From Escherichia phage McMelon, in sequence record OR896838.1: a stretch of DNA of 44,740 bases; one strand, 5' to 3'. The notes beneath the pieces are model-generated. The model made no database searches and had not been told where the DNA came from. It saw only the letters and a program-made list of their open reading frames with translations. The position numbers were made by a program, and so were the translations under genes. Each line of letters begins with the position of its first letter. Position 1 is the stretch's first letter. Of this stretch, positions 1,397-42,579 are shown in pieces.

Positions 1397-2917
1397 ATGA
1401 CCGTTAACGTTGACAACCAGCACCCACTCTATGCGCGCATCGCGCAGGAATGGAAGATGATCCGGGATTGTGTAGCAGGGGAGCGCGCCGTGAAGGCGTG
1501 CGGCCCTTTGTACCTGCCACACCCCGCCAGCGGCGACAATACCGACCCGAAAGCACGGGCGCGATATAAGGCGTATAAGCAACGTGCTGTATTCCTGAAC
1601 GCCACCGCACGTACACTTAACGCGCTGTTAGGCGTGGCCTTCGCTAAGCCGGTAAGTCTCGACCTTTCCGGGGCGATGGCTGACCTGATTGATGACGTTG
1701 ACGGCAGCGGTATGCCACTGCCGCAACTACTGCGCGGTGCTATGTCGGAAGTGCTGCAATCGGGCCGCGCGGGCTTTATGGTGGACTACGACCGCCAGGC
1801 TAACTTTGATGAACTGGGTAACGTAGTGCCGCAGACCGCCGCCGAGATGGCGTCGCACCGCCCGCTTATCCGCCTGTATACGGCAGAACAGATCATCAAC
1901 TGGCGGCAGACCCACGGCGTTGATACGCTAATTGTGCTGAAGGAAACGGACGAAATCAGCACCGAAGACCCGGACGACTTCGCAAACCACGAAGTAACAA
2001 TCTGGACCGAGCTTCGCATGATTAACGGTGCGGCACACGCCCGCCGCTGGTACTACAACGCGGACACGTCCGAGGTGCAAATGGATTTGCCGCGTGGATT
2101 CACCCGCACCGACCTGGTGCCGCTGGTGGATGCCTCCGGTAATGCGCTTACACAACTTCCGTTTTGCTGGTGTGGTGCGGTGGACAACAACGCAACGCCT
2201 GACGCCGCTCCGCTGGCGGATATCGCATCCATCAACATTAAGCACTACAACGCCGAAGCGGATGTCGCCGAGATTGCGCACATCGTGGGTCAGCCTACTC
2301 TGGTGGCAACTGGCTTGACTCAATCATGGGCGGACAAAAACCTGAAGGGCGGCATTGCCCTCGGTGCGACTAAGGGCGTTATCCTGGGCCAGAACATGGA
2401 CGCTAAACTGATCCAGGCGGAGGAGCGCAACTTGTCGGTTGCACTGTGTGAGCGTCGCGAATTGCAAATGGCTAAACTTGGTGCGGCCCTGGTTGAGAAG
2501 GGGACTGCACCTAAGACGGCAACTGAAGCGGCCTACGATGCGCAGACTGATAACAGTATCCTGTCGCTTATTGCCGGTAACGTTGAGAAGGCTTTCAACC
2601 GCGCGTTGCAAATCGTCCAGCTATTCACGGGAGACACCGCCGACCAACGCGTAACGCTGAACAAGTTCTACACCGAAATCACGGTTGATGCGCAGCTTAT
2701 GACCGCGATGATGTCGGGGGTGCAGACTGGCACGGTCCGCCTGGCTGACTTCATCAAGTGGATGATGGCGCAGGGCGTCATCGACGACTCGCAAACCGTC
2801 GAGCAGGTGGAAGACGAATTGCGAAATCAGAATCCATTGCCTCAAATGTCCCCTGATGCGGTAGAATCTACCGAAGAAGACCCGGACAAGGTAGCGGACA
2901 ATGGCGAAGACAATTAA
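1397..2917 (+). CDS. portal protein
   Basis: 506 aa ORF immediately after TerL, RBS AAGGAAA before ATG, acidic C-terminus; assigned by size and synteny. Confidence 0.75.
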   Translation: MTVNVDNQHPLYARIAQEWKMIRDCVAGERAVKACGPLYLPHPASGDNTDPKARARYKAYKQRAVFLNATARTLNALLGVAFAKPVSLDLSGAMADLIDDVDGSGMPLPQLLRGAMSEVLQSGRAGFMVDYDRQANFDELGNVVPQTAAEMASHRPLIRLYTAEQIINWRQTHGVDTLIVLKETDEISTEDPDDFANHEVTIWTELRMINGAAHARRWYYNADTSEVQMDLPRGFTRTDLVPLVDASGNALTQLPFCWCGAVDNNATPDAAPLADIASINIKHYNAEADVAEIAHIVGQPTLVATGLTQSWADKNLKGGIALGATKGVILGQNMDAKLIQAEERNLSVALCERRELQMAKLGAALVEKGTAPKTATEAAYDAQTDNSILSLIAGNVEKAFNRALQIVQLFTGDTADQRVTLNKFYTEITVDAQLMTAMMSGVQTGTVRLADFIKWMMAQGVIDDSQTVEQVEDELRNQNPLPQMSPDAVESTEEDPDKVADNGEDN

Positions 2918-4004
2918 TCAATATATGGCGGATCGAATGATTCGCCGTCACATCTTCACCCAGCGCCTGAGCAATGACCAGGCGCGACGGGTGCTGGCTA
3001 TGTGGGAGAAGTTCCGGCCCACTTTACTTGGTAAGCTGACCGAGTTACTTGATGGCAAAAAGTCCATGAGCAACAAGGCACTTACCACACTGTTAACTCA
3101 AATCGACAAGACCGTCAAAACGGAACTGCGCGCAGAGTTTAAAGTGCTGGCGGAGAGCCTTCAGGAGTTCGCCGACACCGAGGCTGATTATCTCGCGGAC
3201 ACATTAACGGCAGCGATCCAGCCCGCGGTCGCTGTGCCTGCGGTCGAAGTAGTGGGCGTTGTGACCGGCGCGCAGATTGCAGCGACTGCAATGAAAAACC
3301 CGTTCCAGGGGAACACCATGATGCAATGGCCTGATTCACTTTCCGAGTGGACCAGGACGCAGATCGGCAATCAGGTGCGCGCTGGATTCATCCAGGGCAA
3401 GCCGACTATGGAAATTATTGCGGACGTGAGGCGCGCGCTCGGCGGTCGAAGTGCGCAAGCTATCTCAAGCGTTGTTAAGTCCGCGGTCAACCACTATGCG
3501 GCGACCGCCCGCGAACTAATGGTAAAAGCAAATGACGATATTCTCGAAGGTCGCCAATGGTTGGCTACATTGGACACGCATACTTCTCCCATGTGCCAGC
3601 TACGCGATCGCCTGTTTTATCCGGTTGATGTTACTCCCGACACCAAAGGAAAGCGCGGCGGGAAAGTGGTGGCGGGGTCACAATATGGCGCTGGTCCGGG
3701 CAAGCTGCATTATTGCTGCCGTTCGACGGAGACGTGGAAAGTCAAAGGTATGGAAGATTGGCCCAGTGGTAAGCGTCCGGCACTGAAGGCTGACGCGGGC
3801 AGATTGCTGAGCGAGCAGGTCGACGCGCAGACTGATTTCTTCTCATGGGTGCAGCGCCAGCCGCGCCATATTCTGGAAGAATTATACGGAGTGCAACGCG
3901 CCGACCAGATTATGCGCGGAGTGAAAGTGCCGAAGATGTTCACCGATTCCGGCGAACTAATGACTATCGCACAGCTTAAAAACCGGGGGTTATGGCGTGA
4001 TTAA
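2901..4004 (+). CDS. head morphogenesis protein (SPP1 gp7 / Mu F-like)
   Basis: 367 aa; conserved LDTHTSPMCQ...GK-type motif; sits between portal and scaffold; overlaps portal 3' end. Confidence 0.7.
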   Translation: MAKTINQYMADRMIRRHIFTQRLSNDQARRVLAMWEKFRPTLLGKLTELLDGKKSMSNKALTTLLTQIDKTVKTELRAEFKVLAESLQEFADTEADYLADTLTAAIQPAVAVPAVEVVGVVTGAQIAATAMKNPFQGNTMMQWPDSLSEWTRTQIGNQVRAGFIQGKPTMEIIADVRRALGGRSAQAISSVVKSAVNHYAATARELMVKANDDILEGRQWLATLDTHTSPMCQLRDRLFYPVDVTPDTKGKRGGKVVAGSQYGAGPGKLHYCCRSTETWKVKGMEDWPSGKRPALKADAGRLLSEQVDAQTDFFSWVQRQPRHILEELYGVQRADQIMRGVKVPKMFTDSGELMTIAQLKNRGLWRD

Positions 4005-5217: not shown

Positions 5218-5246
5218 TTTTATGTCCTCGTTGTTGGTGTGCAACC

Positions 5247-5275
5247 AATATATGCAACCAATACGCGGATTGCAA
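5247..5275 (-). promoter_or_regulatory. sigma70-like promoter (TTGCAA-17-TATATT) for 4453..5217
   Basis: Minus-strand reading: TTGCAA, 17-nt spacer, TATATT, then GGTTGCACACCAACA and RBS; same -10 and downstream 21-mer as the promoter at 39364..39392. Confidence 0.45.
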
Positions 5276-7317: not shown

Positions 7318-7818
7318 ATGTATGGCGACCCGCAAACCTTTGTCGATTATGCCACTGCGCGAGGCGTTGAAATTACGCTGGGCGATGCAACGCGACACAT
7401 TACCATCGTTAATGACTTCCTTAACGGCATCAACTGGATCGGCGAACAGGCGGACCAGACAGGAATAGACGCATGGCCCCGCATCAATTACCCATCGGAC
7501 GGGAAGCCGGTGCGCGACACGCAAACCGAAGCCGTGGCGGTAGTGCCTGTCGGGCAAATCGTAGACTTTGCATCAATCCCCGTTGCCGTTGAGCAAGCTG
7601 TTTACCGGCTGGCGCTGTTGGTGGCTGACGAGATCGATATTTCTCCTGTCGGCGATGGTAAAGAGACTATTCGCGAAACGGTCGGCCCGATCACGATGGA
7701 ATATGACCCGGCGTCGATTGGTAGCGGGGTGTCGTTCCCGTGGTGGGATGGCTTGTTAGGCCACTGGGTTGATTCAGGCGGCAACGCCGCAGGCAATTTC
7801 GACGTATACAGGGGGTGA
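7318..7818 (+). CDS. putative head-tail connector / head completion protein
   Basis: 166 aa from ATG with AGGAG RBS (the track ORF's first ATG lies in the terminator loop); position between capsid and neck genes. Confidence 0.5.
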   Translation: MYGDPQTFVDYATARGVEITLGDATRHITIVNDFLNGINWIGEQADQTGIDAWPRINYPSDGKPVRDTQTEAVAVVPVGQIVDFASIPVAVEQAVYRLALLVADEIDISPVGDGKETIRETVGPITMEYDPASIGSGVSFPWWDGLLGHWVDSGGNAAGNFDVYRG

Positions 7819-10828: not shown

Positions 10829-11140
10829 TGAAGCGGGACGTCCCGCTTTGTCCCGCCCTGTAAAACCGCATATCTAATCACTTTCATTGCATAAACTCAA
10901 AGCGGGACAGGCGGGACGTCCCGTTTTGTCCCACCCATGAAATGTGCATACCTATTCGAATTTCGTGCATAAAACAAGCGGGACAGAAAGCGGGACAGAC
11001 AAGGGGCGGGACAAAGCGGGACAGCACCCCGTCCCCGCCAGTGCTGCCGCGGTTTTCAGCCGATCGGGACAAGCGGGACAAAGCCCAGTCTTTCAGACTA
11101 GACGGGGGTCAACGGCCCCCCTCGTCTGAGACTGAATAAG
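10829..11140. repeat. GCGGGACA iteron / palindrome array ending in GC-rich hairpin (copy A)
   Basis: At least 10 copies of GCGGGAC or its complement, including perfect palindrome GCGGGACGTCCCGC (10833..10846); terminal hairpin GACGGGGGTCAACGGCCCCCCTCGTC; about 150 bp nearly identical to 39030..39210. Confidence 0.7.
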
Positions 11141-21363: not shown

Positions 21364-23187
21364 ATGGCAGCGGGTACACTATCCGTAACGAATAACAGCA
21401 AGGCGGTTGTTGGGGTCGGCACAACGTTTACCTCGTTTAACGCTGGCGACTTCTTAACGCTGGTGGTAGGACAAATCCCCTACACCGTAGCAATCGCGTC
21501 CATTGAAAGCGACACCGCTCTTACGCTGGTGCTGCCGTTCGACGGCCCATCGGCAACCGGCCTTGCGTGGGATGGCGTTACGCGCGATACCATGTCGCTG
21601 GCAACGATGGGCGTAACCGTACAGGCACAGAAAGCATTGCGCTTGATGATTGCAGATGAAAACAACTGGCGTGCAATCTTCGGCGACGCTGAAGAAGTCA
21701 CAGTAACGTTACCTAACGGGCAGGTAATGCAGGGTATGTCATGGGGCTATCTGTCGCAGTTGATGAAACAGATCGACCTAGTGGAGATGCGCAACCTGCA
21801 ACAACAAGCTGCCGCATCGGAAGCAGCCGCGCAGGGCTTCCGCGATCAGGCCGAAGGCTTCAAGACCGAGACGGCGGGCATTCGCGACGCCACCAATCAG
21901 ATTAAGGCGGATACGCAGGCGATCCACGACGCCACTAATACCATCAAGACGCAGACTGACCAGATTAAGACTGATACTCAGGCCATCAAGGACCAGACGA
22001 ACCAGATCAAGACTGACACCGGCGTTATTCGTGACGAAGCCAATATGGCGAAGGCGGACGCGCAAGCCGCCAGCACTGCCGCGGAGGGATTTCGCGACCA
22101 GGCCGAGGAATGGGCGCAAAGCGTTAACGCGGATAACCTGCTAACCAAATCCGGCAACCTCGCGGGGCTTGCGGACAAAGGTGCGTCGTGGGCTAACCTC
22201 ATGCCGTCCGGCCCGCTTCGAGTAGGCGCTGATCCCGTCGACAATCTGGACGCTGCGACTAGAGGATGGGTGTGTCGCGGTCTTGATGACGTGGGGGTGT
22301 GGGCCTTACGCAATAACTATGCTTCGGAACCCGCTGGCGGCGCAGAAGTATACGGCGGTCGCTTCGACTCATCTGCGAACGTCGCAGGGGTCGAAAAATA
22401 CAGAATGTCGCTGCAACTTCAGGGATTTAATAACGTAGACGCCTGGACACGTTTGGTTACCGCGAACGCCCCCGGCATGGTGAACGCGGCGTCGTGGGAC
22501 TTTAAGTACGATGGTAAGTTGCTTTTCAACAAAGGATTGGTTCCATCATCCACCTCGGCGTCGCCCGGTAACACCTATGTCACCCTTGCGAATACATGGA
22601 GTGACAGCCAATACTCGAACCACGTAGGTTTTGTCGGAGGGGGAACTGGGGTGTCTAATGGTGGGTGGCGTAACTTTATTTCGTTCGGGGCGCTGATCCA
22701 CCCACCAACCGGTAACTCACACCCCCACGCTATGATTGCGCAGGTCTTTGACTATGATTTGGCGTCGGGGGTACAGCCCAACGGCGATAGCATTCGAAAC
22801 ACAACATTCAACCCCGAAGCATATGATATTACCTTCGGCAACAACTCAGGGACTGTTAACTATATTTTCGCAAAGTCACCAGTATCCGATAGGGCGCTGA
22901 AGCATGATATCGCCAGGATCGATACTCAAGTTGCGTACGATAACGTTATGGCGATGGAATACTCTTCCTTTGTTTATAACTACGACAAAAAGGAGACGGT
23001 CAGACGTGGTTTTATCGCGCAGCAGTTGGAAGAGATCGACCCGCAGTATGTTCGTAAGTACGCCGACGCAACGGGTAAAGAGTTTCTGGCATTAGATGAA
23101 AACGTCCTGTTACTTGACCTTGTCGCGACTGTTCAGCATTTGGCGGCGAAGGTTGAGGCGTTAGAAAGTAAGTTAGCGGAGAAATGA
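21364..23187 (+). CDS. side tail fibre protein with C-terminal intramolecular chaperone (peptidase S74-like) domain
   Basis: RBS GAGGA; internal 11-aa repeats; C-terminal region (ALKHDIARID...AQQLEEIDPQYV...) resembles auto-cleaving chaperone domains of T5 L-shaped fibre and K1F endosialidase. Confidence 0.75.
   Translation: MAAGTLSVTNNSKAVVGVGTTFTSFNAGDFLTLVVGQIPYTVAIASIESDTALTLVLPFDGPSATGLAWDGVTRDTMSLATMGVTVQAQKALRLMIADENNWRAIFGDAEEVTVTLPNGQVMQGMSWGYLSQLMKQIDLVEMRNLQQQAAASEAAAQGFRDQAEGFKTETAGIRDATNQIKADTQAIHDATNTIKTQTDQIKTDTQAIKDQTNQIKTDTGVIRDEANMAKADAQAASTAAEGFRDQAEEWAQSVNADNLLTKSGNLAGLADKGASWANLMPSGPLRVGADPVDNLDAATRGWVCRGLDDVGVWALRNNYASEPAGGAEVYGGRFDSSANVAGVEKYRMSLQLQGFNNVDAWTRLVTANAPGMVNAASWDFKYDGKLLFNKGLVPSSTSASPGNTYVTLANTWSDSQYSNHVGFVGGGTGVSNGGWRNFISFGALIHPPTGNSHPHAMIAQVFDYDLASGVQPNGDSIRNTTFNPEAYDITFGNNSGTVNYIFAKSPVSDRALKHDIARIDTQVAYDNVMAMEYSSFVYNYDKKETVRRGFIAQQLEEIDPQYVRKYADATGKEFLALDENVLLLDLVATVQHLAAKVEALESKLAEK
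21877..22041 (+). repeat. tandem 33-bp (11-codon) repeats inside tail fibre gene
   Basis: Five consecutive units of pattern xIKxDTxxIxDxT, flanked by duplicated GFRDQAE-coding segments. Confidence 0.55.
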
Positions 23188-23191
23188 GAAT

Positions 23192-23216
23192 AAGGGGCCA
23201 TACGGCCCCTTTTTTA
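23192..23216. terminator. rho-independent terminator (bidirectional)
   Basis: AGGGGCC-atac-GGCCCCT hairpin with T-runs on both sides between convergent genes. Confidence 0.7.
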
Positions 23217-23789
23217 GTTTGAGTTTTCCCAGTCCATTTTGCGCCGCACCAGCGGGCTTTCGTAATACTCCTTTCCTTCCACTTCCACCAAAGGCCAGTC
23301 GTTCACAATCACGTACGGCTCCGCGATATCCTCAATCACGCCGTGCGCGCTTTGTGGCCCTAACGACACACCCACCAGGATAACACCGGCAACGCGACGT
23401 GACAGATACTCGCGAGCGCAACGCGCCTCCACCAGTCCGCGACGGATGCCGCTGGTGGCTTTAACCTCGTAAGTCCAAACGGCATCGATCACATGCTCGC
23501 GGAAGTCGGGGCCGGATTTAACCTTGCGCTTACCGACCATAATAATATCGCCGCGGTCAATGGTGTTGGCGCTAAACAGGCCGGTACGCATTAGCAAACC
23601 TTGCGGGATACAGCTACGCCCGCCCGCCTGCCCTTCGAGGTACATGCCTGCAAACATTTCGCCCAGCACACCGACGAGTCTGCTTTGCTTGCACGCGTCG
23701 GACTTATAACGCCACTGGTCAAACTCTATGCTTGCGATCATTGCCGCCAGGTGGAATTGTTTACCTGTTATTTCATATTCGCCGTACAT
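23214..23789 (-). CDS. hypothetical protein (possible PD-(D/E)XK-like fold)
   Basis: 191 aa, last gene of leftward operon; GDIIMVGK ... YEVK spacing resembles a restriction-endonuclease-like motif (weak). Confidence 0.5.
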   Translation of the reverse strand: MYGEYEITGKQFHLAAMIASIEFDQWRYKSDACKQSRLVGVLGEMFAGMYLEGQAGGRSCIPQGLLMRTGLFSANTIDRGDIIMVGKRKVKSGPDFREHVIDAVWTYEVKATSGIRRGLVEARCAREYLSRRVAGVILVGVSLGPQSAHGVIEDIAEPYVIVNDWPLVEVEGKEYYESPLVRRKMDWENSN

Positions 23790-23831
23790 TGTGTGGCCCT
23801 CATTGATGCGGGCCGAAGCCCGCGATTAGAA

Positions 23832-24386
23832 TTATTTAAGTGCGCCAGTCACCAGTGTTTTTTCCATGTTACGGAAATCTTCCTGCGTCATGCAGATTTT
23901 CGATCCGTCTTCGCCGGCGAGCACGACCATAGGCTGGACGTCTTGCGCTACAACCCCAAAATCGTGGGCCTTCACCGTCTTGCCGAACGAGGCCACCGTA
24001 TCTTCTGCAACGCGAATTGCGTCGTTATACGCATTAATCTCACCGTCAAGACGTACGGACAGCCCTTTGAGGCTGCCGTATTGCGCTGCCGTTGTATCGA
24101 TCTGAATCTCGTCATGCCCGGTAATGTAAGACTCACCCAGCAGTGCGGCATATGCTACCAGGTCCACGATGTTATCTTCCTGGTGCTTACGGTGCTGGCG
24201 CACCAGCTTCAGGCAGATCAGGAAGGTCCAGGCTTCTTGCTCGGTAAGGTTGCGCCCGGTAAGCGCGTTAAACACGGCGGCGACCTGTTTAGCGCTGCGT
24301 TCGTCTTTCGCGTTGTCATAGCCGTTTTCTTTCCCGCGCTGTTCCATAGTGGTGGCGGCGTTTTTGCAGTATTCGTATGCTTTCAT
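23832..24386 (-). CDS. hypothetical protein
   Basis: 184 aa, strong RBS AAAGGAGA; no confident domain assignment. Confidence 0.55.
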   Translation of the reverse strand: MKAYEYCKNAATTMEQRGKENGYDNAKDERSAKQVAAVFNALTGRNLTEQEAWTFLICLKLVRQHRKHQEDNIVDLVAYAALLGESYITGHDEIQIDTTAAQYGSLKGLSVRLDGEINAYNDAIRVAEDTVASFGKTVKAHDFGVVAQDVQPMVVLAGEDGSKICMTQEDFRNMEKTLVTGALK

Positions 24387-24402
24387 GGTTTGTCTCCTTT
24401 TA

Positions 24403-24423
24403 GGGGAGGCAGTATTGCCTCCC
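24403..24423 (-). promoter_or_regulatory. conserved intergenic stem-loop element (copy 2)
   Basis: GGGAGGCAGTATTGCCTCCC with flanking CGATGTGGTT; near-identical copy at 24729..24748; lies immediately upstream of RBS of 23832..24386. Confidence 0.45.
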
Positions 24424-24437
24424 GATGTGGTTGTGTG

Positions 24438-24707
24438 TTATTTCTTGGCCCACTCCAGAGTTTTACACTCGTAGTCTTCTTCGGCCTGGCTGAGCACACA
24501 CGTCATCATGTGCTCCGCATTGTCAAATCCGCTGGATTTAGCGTATTTATCTGCTCCTCCAACCTCTGCAATCTCGGCGTTTAGCGCCTCTACAGAATGC
24601 AGTTCGATATTATTAAGATAAGGGCTTGAAACGCCTTCTTTGTCTTCAATCATTGACCAGAATGCGTTGATTTTGTTGTCCAGGTCCGCACTAATGAATT
24701 GTTTCAT
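24438..24707 (-). CDS. hypothetical protein
   Basis: 89 aa from internal ATG with RBS AGGTGA; acidic. Confidence 0.45.
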   Translation of the reverse strand: MKQFISADLDNKINAFWSMIEDKEGVSSPYLNNIELHSVEALNAEIAEVGGADKYAKSSGFDNAEHMMTCVLSQAEEDYECKTLEWAKK

Positions 24708-24728
24708 AATATTCACCTTTTTGTTGCG

Positions 24729-24748
24729 GGAGGCGGTATTGCCTCCCG
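24729..24748 (-). promoter_or_regulatory. conserved intergenic stem-loop element (copy 1)
   Basis: GGGAGGCGGTATTGCCTCCC; directly downstream of the predicted start site of the 24757..24785 promoter. Confidence 0.45.
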
Positions 24749-24756
24749 ATGTGGTT

Positions 24757-24785
24757 AATATAGTTGGTTGCATTATTGGTTGCAA
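24757..24785 (-). promoter_or_regulatory. sigma70-like promoter (TTGCAA-17-TATATT)
   Basis: Minus-strand TTGCAA, 17-nt spacer containing AATGCAACCAA, then TATATT; same family as 5247, 26426 and 39364. Confidence 0.45.
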
Positions 24786-25243
24786 GTGAATTTTGCAAGA
24801 TTCACAGAATAAATATGCGGGACCAGTTCTTCACACGCCCGTTTGATGGCGGCGATGTTCTTCGCGCAGTCGTCAATGATGACCAGTTCGTTAACTTCTG
24901 CATAGCACACCAGGCCAAATACGGAACGGGCCTTGTACTCTGGAGGCGGCGTGTCATCAAGCATATGGCGTAAGAACAGACGACCTTTCGGGAATCTATC
25001 CAATTGCTCTTTCGTTGACTCCCAGCAATCTGACTGGCGGTTTGACAGGTACGCAATGTCGAAGCCCTGTTTAGCGTACATGCGCAATAACGGCAGCATG
25101 TCATAATTAATGTCTTCGCGGACGTGGGCCTTATGCCACTTCGCCCAAAACGTTGATTTAGTCTTGATCCCCGGAACTAGGTCGTCGCGCACACTGCTTG
25201 ACCCGTTGATAACGCCATCTAAATCGCAAATCAGTAGTTTCAT
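24773..25243 (-). CDS. HAD-superfamily phosphatase (nucleotidase / PNK 3'-phosphatase-like)
   Basis: 156 aa; N-terminal ICDLDGV matches HAD motif I (DxDG[TV]); later IIDD acidic motif. Confidence 0.6.
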   Translation of the reverse strand: MKLLICDLDGVINGSSSVRDDLVPGIKTKSTFWAKWHKAHVREDINYDMLPLLRMYAKQGFDIAYLSNRQSDCWESTKEQLDRFPKGRLFLRHMLDDTPPPEYKARSVFGLVCYAEVNELVIIDDCAKNIAAIKRACEELVPHIYSVNLAKFTCNQ

Positions 25244-25461
25244 TTTAATTCCGCCATTAAATTTTCACGTACAATACGGGCCGAGAATGCGTCGCACACA
25301 AGATGGCAACGCGCCGTCATGACAAGCCAGCCAGTTAGGTCAAGGCCCAGCAATTGATGAGGTTGGCTTGCGCGCCTTACTTTATTTCCAGGGAAAACCT
25401 GGTAGCGTTTAATTATTTCATCCACGACGCGAGGACTTCGGTCGACGACTAAGATATTCAT
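25240..25461 (-). CDS. hypothetical protein
   Basis: 73 aa; stop overlaps downstream start; overlaps 3' end of methyltransferase gene so start uncertain. Confidence 0.3.
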   Translation of the reverse strand: MNILVVDRSPRVVDEIIKRYQVFPGNKVRRASQPHQLLGLDLTGWLVMTARCHLVCDAFSARIVRENLMAELK

Positions 25462-25954
25462 TTAATTCACCTTCGCTCATTATTTCGATTTGTGCGCTGC
25501 CGTTTGGCGGCACTTCGTCAAAGATTATCAACTGCTGGCACTTGTTATTGCTCGGCCCGACTTCACCGGTTACAGCGTGTATAAATCGGATACGCCAGTC
25601 CAGAAGAATTATCAGGTTTGCAGTCTTCCGGGCCAACCGCGCCCACTTCGTCGACGTGTCCTGATTCAGCAGCATGACAGTCCGGCGTCCGTGCGCTGCA
25701 CACTCGACCCACGGCAGCGGATCGGAATACGGCGGGTTGCACCACTTCCACCCTTTCAACTCTGACCAGTCCACATCGAGCGCGCTGTGCTCTGCCGTGA
25801 AGTAACGCGGTAGCAGGTGGTTGGCGTCGCTTGCCGCCATATCGTAACGGAATCGGTATTTCCGTCGAAGCGGTTTAAATAAAGCTGGCGGCGTGCGCCA
25901 GCTATCTTTTTGCTCACTCTCCGTCATTCTGCGGGTCCAGTGCGTATAGGGCAA
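25418..25954 (-). CDS. DNA N6-adenine methyltransferase (phage Dam-like)
   Basis: 178 aa; WRTPP near N-terminus, DMAAS and catalytic NPPY motifs; alternative start at 25927. Confidence 0.75.
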   Translation of the reverse strand: MPYTHWTRRMTESEQKDSWRTPPALFKPLRRKYRFRYDMAASDANHLLPRYFTAEHSALDVDWSELKGWKWCNPPYSDPLPWVECAAHGRRTVMLLNQDTSTKWARLARKTANLIILLDWRIRFIHAVTGEVGPSNNKCQQLIIFDEVPPNGSAQIEIMSEGELNEYLSRRPKSSRRG

Positions 25955-26378
25955 TTTTCTCTTTACTGTTTAGCACACGCCGGACTCGGGCCGTATCCGC
26001 CGGACCAAGAGGTCGGCAATCGGAATAGTAGCTGCCGTTTGTGGGATTGCGCCACGCCACAAGCACCAGGTCTTTACGGTCGATCTTAGACTGGCGGCCC
26101 TTCGGACGCACGTACTCCTCGGCGCGTTTACAATGTTCACGCAGACCTTCGGCAGTGATGCGGTTTAGTGCCACGCTGGTGGTGTATCCGGTGCGCTGCA
26201 TAATACCCATCAACTCGAAAAGCAGTTCGAAGCGTTCCTCTAACTCCTGGCGCACTTTCTTCTCTCCTTCATATAGCGCCTTGTTGGTGTCCGCCACCGC
26301 GTTCGCCCGTTCGGCCTGTTCACGGGCTTCTAGGCATTGCGCGGCCCAGTATGCCTTTTCTTCTTGTAAAATTCTCAT
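25914..26378 (-). CDS. hypothetical protein
   Basis: 154 aa, RBS GGAGA, helical N-terminal half. Confidence 0.5.
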   Translation of the reverse strand: MRILQEEKAYWAAQCLEAREQAERANAVADTNKALYEGEKKVRQELEERFELLFELMGIMQRTGYTTSVALNRITAEGLREHCKRAEEYVRPKGRQSKIDRKDLVLVAWRNPTNGSYYSDCRPLGPADTARVRRVLNSKEKIALYALDPQNDGE

Positions 26379-26402
26379 CGTGTTGTCTCCAAGTATTAAA
26401 AA

Positions 26403-26423
26403 GGGTGTCCAAACCGGACACCC
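26403..26423 (-). terminator. hairpin with downstream U-run (terminator/attenuator overlapping promoter start site)
   Basis: GGGTGTCC-ggtttg-GACACCC followed on the minus strand by TTTTAATA; sits at the predicted +1 of the 26426..26454 promoter. Confidence 0.4.
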
Positions 26424-26425
26424 TC

Positions 26426-26454
26426 AATATAATGCAACCAATATGATTATGCAA
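26426..26454 (-). promoter_or_regulatory. sigma70-like promoter (TTGCAT-17-TATATT)
   Basis: Minus-strand TTGCAT, 17-nt spacer containing ATTGGTTGCAT, TATATT. Confidence 0.45.
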
Positions 26455-26459
26455 CCAAT

Positions 26460-26783
26460 TTACGAATAAAAATTTGGGTCGCGTGCAACGTCTACTAGAT
26501 ACAGGTTACTCATGCGATTGCCGTAGTGCCCCGGTGTGCGCTGGCGGCACACAACGGCGAAGCCTGGCGGAATTGTATTGCCCGTCTCGATAATCCACGC
26601 CACGCGTGCGCCAGACAGCGTCTTGCCGTTGTATTCGATGCGCGTGCCACCATCGGCAGTGTTAAGGTTGCCAATCTTACAGCCTGTGGACTTCAGGCGA
26701 ATGACACCGGTCTTGCTGTCGTAGGAAAAAAGCTGATTGGTCATTGCCACTGAAAAGTCGATTGCGTCGAATGCAGTATTCAT
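26460..26783 (-). CDS. hypothetical protein, HNH_3/NUMOD-like (possibly degenerate homing-endonuclease-like)
   Basis: 107 aa; pattern GxxxEYNGK...ARVAWIIETGNTIPPGFAV...NLYLV resembles HNH_3-type proteins, but no His-Asn-His catalytic triad was recognised by eye. Confidence 0.4.
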   Translation of the reverse strand: MNTAFDAIDFSVAMTNQLFSYDSKTGVIRLKSTGCKIGNLNTADGGTRIEYNGKTLSGARVAWIIETGNTIPPGFAVVCRQRTPGHYGNRMSNLYLVDVARDPNFYS

Positions 26784-29140: not shown

Positions 29141-29176
29141 GTCTCCGAAAAGGGCGGGACAAGCCCGCCGTATTGA

Positions 29177-32378: not shown

Positions 32379-33158
32379 TTAACGGCGGCGACGTTTACGT
32401 GGCGCTTCGTCTTCGTCGTCGTCCTCATCTTCGTCATCGCGTGGCTTACGACGTTTGCGAGGTTTTTCATCTTCCTCATCGTCGTCGTCATCGCGGCGCT
32501 TGGATTTCTTGGACTTGCGCGGCTTGTCATCTTCATCATCGTCATCACGACGTTTTGACTTTTTGGACTTGCGCGGTGCTTCGTCTTCGTCGTTGTCCAG
32601 GTCTTCATCGGAGCAAGACGACCCGCCACCTCCGAAAGCTTCGCCGTCTTCACGGAATCGCAGACCCAGCAAGCCAGCCCCGAGACCCTTGCCGTTGGTA
32701 TTGTTCCACGCCCAAATATCCAGGGACACATTGCAATAACAACCGGAGTAGATCTCCTGGCCTTCGATCTCGTCGCCTTCTACGGTCAGACCTTGTTCCG
32801 TCTGCTTCTCTCCGAGTGACGTTTGAATGATCGGCTGTTTGAACGATTTGGCGTTGATGTACAACATGCCTTCGAATTCTTCGGTTACTTCGTCGCGCTC
32901 GTCACCGTCGCGAACTGCGCATTCCTTAGAATCCTGGGCGTAGTGGCGGTCCATCCACTTATCGGCATTCTTCTCGGATTTCAGCTTATCGGTGAGCACT
33001 GCGCGCGCTGCCGCTTCCACTTTGTCCACCTGCGGATCTTCTTTATCCAGAAGAATAACGGCACGGTATGCCGGTTTTTGACCATCCTGTTTAGGGGTAT
33101 CACGTTCCCAAATTTTAAGGAAGCATACGCGCACATTTTTCAGGTTGACTTTAGCCAT
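32379..33158 (-). CDS. single-stranded DNA-binding protein (T7 gp2.5 / DUF2815-like) with C-terminal acidic/basic repeat tail
   Basis: N-terminus MAKVNLKNVRVCF typical of gp2.5-like SSBs; C-terminus has about 3 tandem repeats of KPRKSKKSKRRDDDD(E/D) encoded by about 60-bp DNA repeats. Confidence 0.55.
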   Translation of the reverse strand: MAKVNLKNVRVCFLKIWERDTPKQDGQKPAYRAVILLDKEDPQVDKVEAAARAVLTDKLKSEKNADKWMDRHYAQDSKECAVRDGDERDEVTEEFEGMLYINAKSFKQPIIQTSLGEKQTEQGLTVEGDEIEGQEIYSGCYCNVSLDIWAWNNTNGKGLGAGLLGLRFREDGEAFGGGGSSCSDEDLDNDEDEAPRKSKKSKRRDDDDEDDKPRKSKKSKRRDDDDDEEDEKPRKRRKPRDDEDEDDDEDEAPRKRRRR

Positions 33159-33248
33159 TTTCCAATTCCTCATTTTCACATGTATCGGGGTTATTGGAGG
33201 CCACCCCGTTCGGCTTGGTTGCCAATTTACTTGGTTGCGCTTAAGCGG

Positions 33249-35369: not shown

Positions 35370-35879
35370 TTAATCTTCCAGTTCGAAATAGGTTTCGACG
35401 ATTTCTTTTAAATCTTTGTGGAAGTCTTCGACGTCGTCGTCTTCCAGCTTGGCGATTGATTTGATCTCGAACGCTTCCAGCAGGTCGTCAAATTCGTCGT
35501 TAGCATCGTCGTCATCGCCACCGGCGATAATCGCGGCGTACTGCTTGATCTCGTCGCGCATCTCTGCCAGCGGATCGGCATCTTTCTTCCCTTTGCCTTT
35601 CGCCGGAGCTTTTTTACCCTTCGCCGGTTTTTCGTCTTCGGCTTCTTCATCGTCGTCATCTTCTACGACTTCTTTTTTGGCCTTACCTTTAGCCGGGGAT
35701 TTTTTAGATTTAGCCGGTTTTTCGTCATCGTCGTCATCTTCGACAACTTCTTTTTTGGCCTTAGACGGCTTCTTATCTTCCTGTTTACCAACGGCAGCGC
35801 CAACGGTTTCATAATGCTTTGCAATGGTTTCCAGTGCTACTACGCCGCGAGTGATCAGGTTTACGATTTGCTCAAACAT
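35370..35879 (-). CDS. highly charged repeat protein (alternating poly-Lys and poly-Asp/Glu blocks)
   Basis: 170 aa from ATG with GGAGA RBS; internal tandem repeats KKEVVEDDDDxEKPAKxKKxPAKGK; the track ORF extends to 36059 but that region looks like a 5' leader. Confidence 0.5.
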   Translation of the reverse strand: MFEQIVNLITRGVVALETIAKHYETVGAAVGKQEDKKPSKAKKEVVEDDDDDEKPAKSKKSPAKGKAKKEVVEDDDDEEAEDEKPAKGKKAPAKGKGKKDADPLAEMRDEIKQYAAIIAGGDDDDANDEFDDLLEAFEIKSIAKLEDDDVEDFHKDLKEIVETYFELED

Positions 35880-36075: not shown

Positions 36076-36105
36076 ATGATAGATTGGTTGCAGGATGGGT
36101 GTCAA
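36076..36105 (-). promoter_or_regulatory. strong sigma70-like leftward promoter (TTGACA-18-TATCAT)
   Basis: Minus-strand perfect -35 TTGACA, 18-nt spacer containing CTGCAACCAATC, -10 TATCAT; heads the leftward operon. Confidence 0.55.
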
Positions 36106-38886: not shown

Positions 38887-38961
38887 ATTCTGCGCGCATT
38901 GGTTGCCGATATGGGAATTCCCATATCGTTAGAAGATTAAATTTTGCGCGCATTGGTTGCC
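38876..38961. repeat. direct repeat - 22-bp perfect palindrome - direct repeat structure (candidate origin/operator)
   Basis: 31-bp direct repeats A(A/G)AAGATTAAATT(C/T)TGCGCGCATTGGTTGCC at 38876..38907 and 38930..38961 flanking CGATATGGGAATTCCCATATCG (38907..38928); third ATTGGTTGCC at 38986..38996. Confidence 0.6.
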
Positions 38962-39029
38962 ATTTTGAGTGTTTTTATCTGGTCGTATTGGTTGCCGTGT
39001 AGTGTAAATATAGTGAATAGTTATGCAGT

Positions 39030-39210
39030 TTTATTGCATAAAGCAAGCGGGACAAAAAGCGGGACAAACAAGGGGCGGGACAAAGCGGGACAGCACCCCT
39101 GTCCCGCCCCGGATGACGCGGCTTCCAGAGGAGCGGGACAGGCGGGACAACTCCCAGTCTTTCAGACTAGACGGGGGTCAATGGCCCCCCTCGTCTGAGA
39201 CTGAATAAAA
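39030..39210. repeat. GCGGGACA iteron / palindrome array ending in GC-rich hairpin (copy B)
   Basis: Near-identical to 10970..11140: same order of GCGGGACA units, GGCGGGAC...GTCCCGCC inverted repeat and terminal hairpin (loop differs by one base). Confidence 0.7.
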
Positions 39211-39363
39211 TCCGGGTATTGCAAAATACACGGCAGCATGATGCGAATTGCGGTCGTCGATGAACTAGGCAACCAATGCGGGTTGTATTATGCTGAGTGA
39301 AAAATGCGGTTTGCAGTCACAGCAGATAGCGATCAGCTTTTTCATGCGCGTGATTAATATTGG

Positions 39364-39392
39364 TTGCACCCACCCTGGCACCCTGCTATATT
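39364..39392 (+). promoter_or_regulatory. sigma70-like promoter (TTGCAC-17-TATATT) for rightward early ORFs
   Basis: TTGCAC, 17-nt spacer, TATATT, then GGTTGCACACCAACA and RBS GAGGAC; -10 plus downstream 21-mer identical to the 5247..5275 promoter. Confidence 0.5.
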
Positions 39393-39420
39393 GGTTGCAC
39401 ACCAACATGAGGACCGAACA

Positions 39421-42520: not shown

Positions 42521-42550
42521 TTGACTCGCAACCAACATAGGGGCCATACT
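42521..42550 (+). promoter_or_regulatory. candidate promoter (TTGACT-18-CATACT)
   Basis: Directly after terminator; followed by GCAACCAATCAAC motif and strong RBS. Confidence 0.35.
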
Positions 42551-42579
42551 GCAACCAATCAACGAGAGGAGTAATCAAG

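Follow-up and report, generated by a model that had tools for sequence, protein, structure and literature searches.

Escherichia phage McMelon (OR896838.1) carries, within a minus-strand operon of replication and modification genes, two near-identical copies of a 29-nucleotide (nt) repeat that comprises a short leader and a GC-rich stem-loop. The window, as the whole analysed stretch of 44,740 nt is called here, is a complete, circularly permuted genome of a Dhillonvirus (HK578-like) coliphage, and 155 phage records match the region, almost all from Escherichia or Shigella siphoviruses of about 44-45 kb. The two copies of the repeat, A and B, very probably represent a duplication of one conserved promoter-leader hairpin, which now marks the cassette of a small accessory gene, orf89.

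The operon runs in the order HNH-like open reading frame (ORF), 154-residue ORF, Dam, 73-residue ORF, a HAD phosphatase/polynucleotide-kinase-like gene, orf89, a DUF6378 gene and a 191-residue ORF, and ends at a bidirectional terminator (23192-23211). The features around the repeat, from the 5' to the 3' side of the operon, are the following.

24773-25243, minus strand: gene for a HAD-type phosphatase/polynucleotide-kinase-like protein of 156 residues (phrog_415)
24757-24785, minus strand: sigma70-type promoter match, with -35 TTGCAA at 24785-24780, a 17-nt spacer and -10 TATATT at 24762-24757
24764-24784, minus strand: two TGCAACCAA motifs in the promoter, at 24784-24776 and 24772-24764
24728-24756, minus strand: copy A of the repeat, with leader AACCACATC at 24756-24748 and stem-loop GGGAGGC-AATACC-GCCTCCC at 24747-24728
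24714-24719, minus strand: Shine-Dalgarno (SD) sequence of orf89, AAGGTG, 8 nt after copy A
24438-24707, minus strand: orf89, an accessory ORF of 89 residues, including its stop codon; ATG at 24707 (phrog_7287)
24404-24432, minus strand: copy B of the repeat, with leader AACCACATC and stem-loop GGGAGGC(A)-AUAC-(U)GCCTCCC
24394-24399, minus strand: SD sequence of the DUF6378 gene, AAGGAG, 4 nt after copy B
23832-24386, minus strand: DUF6378 gene, 184 residues; ATG at 24386 (phrog_9871)
24404-24727: 324-bp indel block, holding orf89, its ribosome-binding site (RBS) and one repeat copy; its register is arbitrary within the 29-nt repeat

The 3' end of the phosphatase gene, which exists as two alleles that are merely 72-79% identical, overlaps the promoter -35. 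Each repeat consists of AACCACATC followed by GGGAGGC-AATAC(C/T)-GCCTCCC or, written as a 29-mer on the minus strand, AACCACATCGGGAGGCAATAC(C/T)GCCTCCC. The pattern AACCACATCGGGAGGCRATACYGCCTCCC has exactly two matches in the window, both on the minus strand, and the search for further copies that the initial annotation had proposed found none in the window with as many as three mismatches allowed; the pattern was absent from all 100 dinucleotide-preserving shuffles. A repeat search of the window aligned the two copies at 97% identity, 324 nt apart, with loop position 6 as the sole difference (C in copy A, T in copy B). The annotation had described two near-identical minus-strand stem-loops at 24398-24428 and 24726-24758. 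The stem-loops are real and those coordinates lie a few bases off; the C/T position stands, and the A/G variation that was also described is absent, both copies having A. The anatomy then proposed, one hairpin at about the +1 of a promoter and a second before the next RBS, is borne out. Copy A lies directly 3' of the TTGCAA-17-TATATT promoter match, 0-9 nt past its -10, and upstream of the orf89 SD, and copy B lies between the orf89 stop codon, 6 nt away, and the DUF6378 SD. A promoter scan gave no match upstream of copy B, which lacks a promoter of its own because the orf89 stop codon comes so shortly before the repeat.

Both copies fold as an 8-bp GC hairpin, with a minimum free energy (MFE) of -16 to -18.5 kcal/mol for folded segments of 66-76 nt and z-scores of -3.6 and -4.2 against shuffles of the minus-strand RNA. 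Copy A reaches 8 bp through an additional C-G pair (24727-24748); in copy B, the T in place of C in the loop allows an additional A-U pair. The MFE fold leaves the SD unpaired. Only 0-1 U occurs in the 8 nt 3' of either hairpin, and a terminator scan of the window reported neither of them. No Rfam 15 covariance-model match overlapped the element at E values up to 10 across 23000-26500, where the scan returned three weak and irrelevant small-RNA matches, all away from it.

What does this region look like in related phages? The loci examined were 13 from IMG/VR and 11 metagenomic dhillonvirus loci, together with slur05/06, Bas84 and JLBYU60. In these loci the phosphatase gene lies upstream of the DUF6378 gene and a single hairpin occupies the intergenic region. 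Altogether, the element is single-copy in about 120 GenBank and 25 metagenomic relatives. Alleles of the GGGGGC type occur in 74 GenBank records, once in each, and the GGGAGGC type is found at two places only in the GenBank records of TH11, TH13 and Pandora71. In all relatives, the single-copy promoter and hairpin serve the DUF6378 gene, with the hairpin just 5' of its RBS.

The surrounding architecture is constant. The promoter is conserved in 25 relatives as TTGCAA-17-TATAGT/TATATT/TATCTT, with the -35 lying in an invariant block (TTGCAAAATTYACTTGCAACCAATA) and a second TGCAACCAA/TTGGTTGCA motif in the 17-nt spacer. The -10 is followed by a 7-9-nt leader ending in purine-T-C, the hairpin, an A-run, the SD and the start codon. 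Since the stem begins 7-9 nt past the -10 and after the conserved purine-T-C, as it does in 21 of 21 promoter-linked alleles, the predicted transcript start falls 2-3 nt before the stem. These comparisons show an ancestral order of promoter, R-T-C plus GC hairpin, RBS and DUF6378 gene.

A GC hairpin is retained in all 22 distinct alleles (leader-segment MFE -8.5 to -18.5 kcal/mol), and the leader and trailer around it are much more variable than the hairpin. Stem length ranges from 5 to 8 bp, and whole base pairs are gained or lost between its variants, GGGAGGC/GCCTCCC, (C)GGGGGC/GCCCCC(G) and GGGGC/GCCCC. In two loci with nearly the same flanks (L024 and L030), the difference consists of exactly the A and the T of one pair. 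In many alleles there is an outer helix as well, whose covariation passes through a G.U intermediate (GUG/CAC, GUG/CGC, GCG/CGC) and favours an RNA element over a duplex-DNA site. One uncompensated change, an A.C mismatch, was seen (L005/L016). The loop is conserved as R-W-T-A-Y-N, that is (A/G)(A/T)TA(C/T)N, while the stem sequence changes; an A-run follows the stem, and a U-tract follows it in 0 of the 22 alleles. These variants are described from per-allele folds; MAFFT puts the arms out of register across the compensatory A/T indel. The variants may descend from few events. Judged from these patterns, the hairpin structure appears to be under selection, with the stem kept by compensatory changes. 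The initial annotation had regarded a lack of conservation as fatal to its proposal; wherever a relative has kept this promoter, the element's position and structure are conserved as well. Two loci (L018 and L033) lack the phosphatase gene, promoter and hairpin together, and their deletion ends 2-3 nt from the expected hairpin end.

Several familiar identities were tried for the element and rejected. An intrinsic (Rho-independent) terminator would share the GC-rich hairpin, but the U-tract is missing from both copies and all 22 alleles. The annotation's statement that the hairpins are not terminators therefore holds for the canonical intrinsic kind and says too much if extended to attenuation, which is possible: U-less promoter-early stem-loops (PeSLs) of phage RB49 are reported to attenuate (PMC2839356). 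A Lambda-type nut site was rejected for want of a boxA (CGCTCTTA-like) in the 60 nt around each copy; the focal stem has 7-8 bp with a 4-6-nt AAUACN loop, as against the 5-bp boxB with its GNRA-like pentaloop. The loop of copy B could be read as a -10 hexamer (AATACT), and this too was rejected, given the variable sixth position across alleles and the absence of a -35. Finally, an exact-pattern scan of IMG/VR for the hairpin found only slur05 and a 9-kb contig (L039, IMGVR_UViG_3300032038_001877) without other similarity to the window; there, at 7637-7656, GGGAGGCAATACAGCCTCCC is followed by TTTTTG after a stop codon, an ordinary intrinsic terminator that shares the stem and loop and was judged a chance match.

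The origin of the second copy emerges from comparing closely related genomes. Two-copy genomes all hold orf89 between the copies, with the same 324-nt spacing and the same junctions: the window, TH11, Pandora71 and three Logan/ENA contigs (L034-36). TH13 likewise has the repeat at two places. Phages slur05/06 match the window at 500 of 500 nt left of copy A and 200 of 200 nt right of copy B, with one copy and no orf89; their single copy has the left flank of copy A and the right flank of copy B. JLBYU60, which also has one copy and lacks the 324-bp block, matches at 499 of 500 nt on the left and 196 of 200 nt on the right. Whole-genome BLAST against slur06 and against JLBYU60 gives, in each case, two alignment blocks that share 29 nt, the signature of a repeat-bounded indel, and the 324-bp block is a precise indel relative to these near-isogenic phages. 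The window lineage very probably has its second copy only because a block of orf89 plus one repeat copy was inserted. The annotation had treated the two copies as independent regulatory sites, a view that does not survive the finding that relatives hold one and that the second came with the block. The empty sites differ in the loop base, which is C (the copy A allele) in slur05/06 and T (the copy B allele) in JLBYU60. Crossovers to the left and to the right of the loop polymorphism would yield just these two chimeras, and integration of a circle with one allele into a genome with the other also fits.

The inserted gene belongs to phrog_7287 (E = 1.8e-30; function unassigned there), and no Pfam domain was found in it. 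An AlphaFold2 model from the single sequence is all-helical with a pLDDT of 62, too poor for a fold search. Within dhillonviruses, orf89 is present in only 7 genomes or contigs. By tblastn, it occurs in only three dhillonviruses, at 98.9% identity or more, and about 200 other records have homologs less than 60% identical (the best about 50-60%), mostly from rV5-like Vequintavirinae and a few from Krischvirus (RB49-like). In rV5 and LTH01, the homolog lies behind a sigma70 promoter, and the hairpin found 14 nt past its stop codon, GGGCC-RAAA-GGCCC, is likewise U-less but different. Copy B was therefore not imported with the gene, and by this comparison it derives from the dhillonvirus's own element rather than from the earlier context of orf89. 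An index of 5.8 billion proteins contained one orf89 cluster only, 99% identical, with the same two-hairpin junctions in all its contigs, and no closer donor or donor context was found in that index. These distributions indicate that orf89 is foreign to dhillonviruses, apparently a travelling accessory gene.

The RB49 homolog of orf89 provides a link to PeSLs, the cassettes described in T4-type phages (Arbiol et al. 2010, PMC2839356; Comeau et al. 2014, PMC4122927), as it sits behind a classical one: a terminator hairpin followed by TTGACT-17-CATAAT. PeSL stem-loops have the form GGGG...CCCC, with one subclass downstream of the -10, and the crossovers that were mapped fall either in the loop or in the interval from the -10 to the ATG; in RB49, ORFan192 lies between two PeSLs, and phi1 has a single PeSL instead (PMC2839356). 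The focal locus resembles these cassettes in its intergenic sigma70-type promoter, in its G-run/C-run stem-loop without a U-tract, in the following SD and ATG of a small ORFan, and in having an ORFan flanked on both sides in one phage where a close relative (slur05/06, JLBYU60) has one chimeric copy; the orf89 homolog of RB49 is itself PeSL-associated. The differences are equally plain. The host genome is that of a siphovirus of about 45 kb (Dhillonvirus) rather than a T4-like myovirus, and the focal element is single-copy in almost all genomes, whereas PeSLs form a dispersed family of about 50 per genome in hyperplastic regions. Other promoter-plus-hairpin units in the window have stems unrelated to the focal stem. 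The duplicated part here is 29 nt, leader plus hairpin, so that copy B lacks a promoter, while PeSL-flanked genes have complete units on both sides. In addition, the focal stem-loop is probably transcribed from its own promoter, one that is predicted from sequence. On this analysis, the element appears to work like a PeSL at one locus while standing outside the PeSL family. Two sequence likenesses to RB49 (L037, 2240-2308 and 3215-3315) deserve mention: the stem-loop of PeSL208/207, GGGAGGGG-TAATAC-TCTCCC, resembles the focal GGGAGGC-AATACC-GCCTCCC, and PeSL leaders of the form TATACT-ACACACATC resemble the focal TATATT-AACCACATC. These likenesses could reflect chance or shared constraints on early leaders.

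Exchange in this region is not confined to orf89. Over the opening 190 nt of the DUF6378 gene, most relatives are 92-97% identical to the window, against 72-79% in the phosphatase gene. In Pandora71 the phosphatase allele is the divergent one, but the promoter, both hairpins and orf89 are identical to those of the window, and the alleles switch within the invariant -35/operator block of 26 nt. The -10 regions (TATATT, TATCTT) and the trailers, of which there are three, vary around an identical 29-nt unit, and in one locus (L024) this unit lies between different flanks. These alignments show that alleles and cassettes are joined at the conserved promoter and hairpin sequences. As in the moron or linker arrangement, a single accessory gene has been placed between two genes of a conserved operon, with joints at gene boundaries and at short conserved regulatory sequences. 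However, a classical moron has its own promoter and terminator and no direct-repeat bounds, whereas orf89 relies on the promoter already in place and has a 29-nt duplication of resident sequence on its two sides.

Other junctions are built along related lines. JLBYU60 (L042 5856-6218; window about 5230) has an additional ORF of 122 residues between a TGCAACCAA-type promoter and the downstream RBS, and a U-less hairpin of the same build as the focal element, ACCAATC-GGGGGC-GAAA-GCCCC-TAAAA, closes the insert. Because that cassette end is built in this way, the sequences suggest a recurrent unit in these operons, an ORF plus a 3' U-less hairpin directly before the next RBS. Further stop-hairpin-RBS junctions occur in the window at 29153, 32340 and 35342. 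In a separate observation, a DUF6378 gene on the metagenomic fragment OQVO01019162.1 (L032, about 300-380) has a different upstream gene and a different U-less hairpin, GGCCCC-GAAA-GGGGCC, just 5' of its RBS, a further instance of an ORF with a 3' hairpin next to this gene. The depositors of JLBYU60 annotated Gam-like, PD-(D/E)XK nuclease and resolvase genes.

The reading that we favour, which we hold as somewhat better than an even bet when taken as a whole, combines a duplicated leader element, recombination within the repeat and an RNA-level role for the hairpin. The 324-bp block would enter and leave by homologous recombination within the 29-nt repeat, carried out by the phage's own functions and possibly by way of a circular ORF-plus-hairpin intermediate, as proposed for T4-type PeSLs; T4 recombination is cited as needing less than 50 bp of homology (PMC2839356). 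At the RNA level, +1 would be the conserved purine about 7 nt past the -10, which would place the stem 2-3 nt from the 5' end. The copy A stem, at the end of the transcript, would hinder RppH and 5'-end-dependent RNase E attack; that 5' secondary structure stabilizes transcripts against both enzymes is established (PMC3997798 and its refs 92-95). Copy B, now in a bicistronic RNA, would put the same structure directly upstream of the DUF6378 RBS. There it may shield the orf89 segment from 3' exonucleases, guard the downstream segment once any processing has taken place, and keep the DUF6378 RBS insulated from the new upstream sequence. A role as mRNA stabilizer, 5'-terminal in copy A and intercistronic in copy B, is put forward tentatively, at rather less than even chances. 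Among the three functions suggested by the annotation it is the best fit, given the constant placement of the stem behind the -10 and the purine-T-C. The leaders of ompA, papA and T7 gene 10 are similarly organized, with a stable hairpin a few nt from the 5' end (a predicted one in the present case), then a single-stranded A-rich segment and the SD; the focal element differs from them in that its 5' end is predicted and that copy B is internal to the transcript.

A number of points weigh against this reading. The 122-residue ORF of JLBYU60 is bounded by GAG microhomology alone (3 nt). In one contig (L034, Logan ERR13989581, 26.9 kb), about 1.65 kb with the 154-residue ORF, Dam, the 73-residue ORF and the phosphatase gene is absent at 2880-3100, and an ATG microhomology marks the joint between the leader of a 26402-type promoter and the focal promoter's second TGCAACCAA; this contig retains orf89 and both hairpins. 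Since other indels show only 3-4 nt of microhomology, repeat-mediated exchange may not be general. The duplication is a single event, and an illegitimate joint must have created the junction between TAACACAC and AACCACATC in the first place. An independent C>T change could account for the T allele of JLBYU60. As to function, no transcript maps of dhillonviruses or HK578 were found in the literature, and +1 is placed from promoter geometry only; protection from RppH may be partial with 2-3 unpaired nt at the 5' end. Moreover, the outer helix of many alleles starts only 4 nt past the -10, so that it is complete only in read-through RNA and is better suited to attenuation or to a role at a 3' end. 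Of the rival explanations, a staggered illegitimate insertion is the main historical one and read-through attenuation the main functional one.

In the first of these, the repeat is a passive by-product: two illegitimate microhomology joints, staggered by 29 nt in the recipient, would have duplicated the intervening sequence. The hairpin would be idle in recombination and kept on both sides since each gene benefits. The microhomology joints just described fit this picture, as does the absence of long homology at the TAACACAC-AACCACATC junction; besides, with the element single-copy in all other genomes, there was no second copy to recombine with before the event. It is harder to see how such an origin would account for loop C and loop T empty sites in near-isogenic genomes, as expected for repeat-based excision or integration, for the same unit between three different left and right flanks, or for crossovers that map to the adjoining conserved promoter block. 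It also covers the first event only and is compatible with later repeat-mediated excision. A whole-genome indel survey of the window against slur06 and JLBYU60 found no other indel bounded by a long repeat. We consider the by-product explanation possible, with chances of perhaps one in three at best.

The second rival makes the hairpin mainly a transcriptional attenuator or insulator of the PeSL kind. By damping the read-through that arrives from the upstream phosphatase operon and, in the case of copy B, from orf89, it would leave downstream expression under the control of the local promoter. One RB49 PeSL stem-loop, likewise a G-run/C-run structure without a U-tract, cut lacZ expression about as much as rrnB T1 (PMC2839356). 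The outer helix that is complete only in read-through RNA would suit this role, and the neighbouring promoter at 26402-26424 has a true terminator-like hairpin 1 nt past its -10. On the other hand, an A-run rather than a U-tract follows the stem in all alleles, and since the likely +1 of the hairpin's own promoter lies upstream of it, transcripts of that promoter would be attenuated too. Copy B, furthermore, would lower expression of the conserved DUF6378 gene, which is already without an adjacent promoter. Attenuation as the main function is accordingly rated as unlikely, though more than a token alternative to stabilization.

A third possibility is that a protein of the phage or the host binds the hairpin, which would serve as an RNA operator for translation or timing or as a double-stranded DNA palindrome, with the loop R-A-U-A-Y recognized. 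Conservation of the loop through changes of stem sequence would be explained in this way, the hairpin lies 4-11 nt from the SD, and the CCUCCC of its 3' arm is anti-SD-like. However, the SD is free in the MFE fold, and the SD-like GGAGG of the 5' arm is absent from GGGGGC alleles. The 5-8-bp stem with its compensatory indels and G.U pairs argues for a structural element and not a sequence-specific DNA site; no Rfam family matched, and no candidate binding protein was identified. Nothing was found in support of the translational operator that the annotation had suggested, and a binding site is improbable.

Could the element instead be a dedicated capture site? Leader plus hairpin, together with the similar ATC-Gn-loop-Cn-TAAAA hairpins that end other small ORFs, might be recognized as a DNA or RNA hairpin by a phage nuclease or recombinase. 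If this were true, strictly lytic siphoviruses would have an integron-attC-like system in which single ORFs are actively inserted and excised just past resident promoters. The likeness to an integron cassette (ORF plus attC hairpin) lies in the promoterless ORF with an imperfect hairpin just past a resident promoter, and excision of a circle is possible in principle. Unlike integrons, the locus shows no integrase or attC core sites, its hairpin is only 20 nt, and general homologous recombination explains the exchange; a dedicated site is very improbable. Processing by RNase III of the T7 type, cutting polycistronic early RNA between genes, would suit intercistronic and leader hairpins without U-tracts in an early operon, but RNase III substrates need roughly two helical turns, and with a stem of only 8 bp in the window and 5-8 bp across alleles, and no Rfam family matched, the RNase processing site of the annotation, read as an RNase III site, has next to no chance of being correct.

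Some further observations concern the focal promoter and other repeats of the genome. In the window lineage, the two promoter motifs form a direct repeat, TGCAACCAA-TAA-TGCAACCAA, whereas most relatives have the inverted form TGCAACCAA-N4-TTGGTTGCA; the pair is probably an operator, judging from its sequence. The related motif (T/G)GCAACCAA has 12 exact copies in the window, and 26 at up to one mismatch as against about 12 expected. Its sites (5240-5261, 24764-24784, 26433-26458, 33215-33239, 36084-36092, 38899-38996, 39360-39399 and 42527-42558) are mostly paired, lie in or beside sigma70-like promoters on both strands and usually abut the -10. From this distribution, the motif looks like the operator of a phage-encoded regulator. 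At 26402-26458, on the minus strand, a composite TTGCAT-17-TATATT promoter is followed 1 nt past the -10 by the hairpin AGGGTGTCC-GGTTT-GGACACCCT and then TTTTT; as the sequence reads, upstream transcripts would terminate there and the promoter's own transcripts would start inside the stem.

Elsewhere in the window, a direct repeat of 196 nt at 85% identity occurs 28 kb apart (10944-11139 and 39013-39208; also 10831-10973 and 39085-39150). It is rich in GCGGGAC/TGTCCCGC iterons and contains a hairpin with a 9-bp stem. Tail genes flank one copy, and the other follows the primase/helicase gene, so the repeat may be an origin or a packaging-related sequence. Finally, families of GTC/GTCATC-rich direct repeats (D1, D2, D4, D6 and D7) lie inside minus-strand ORFs at 32395-32614 and 35485-35772, where they encode acidic (Asp/Glu-rich) and Lys-rich stretches of two replication-module proteins; slur06 differs from the window by a length change of about 130 nt in this area.

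What the locus offers is a clean, near-isogenic pair of filled and empty sites, with both chimeric empty alleles, indicating that short promoter-leader sequences act as joints for gene exchange in Dhillonvirus, a siphovirus genus much used in phage collections. It would extend the PeSL idea past T4-like phages. The gene itself, orf89 (phrog_7287), would be a mobile accessory gene common to three unrelated coliphage groups, and this spread makes it a candidate for a host-takeover or anti-defence function. For dhillonvirus engineering, the site 3' of the hairpin would be a naturally tolerated insertion point, from which the 29-nt repeat predicts spontaneous loss of the insert. In sum, this is a tidy and fairly ordinary case of phage gene swapping at short conserved regulatory sequences, and current understanding of that process stands.

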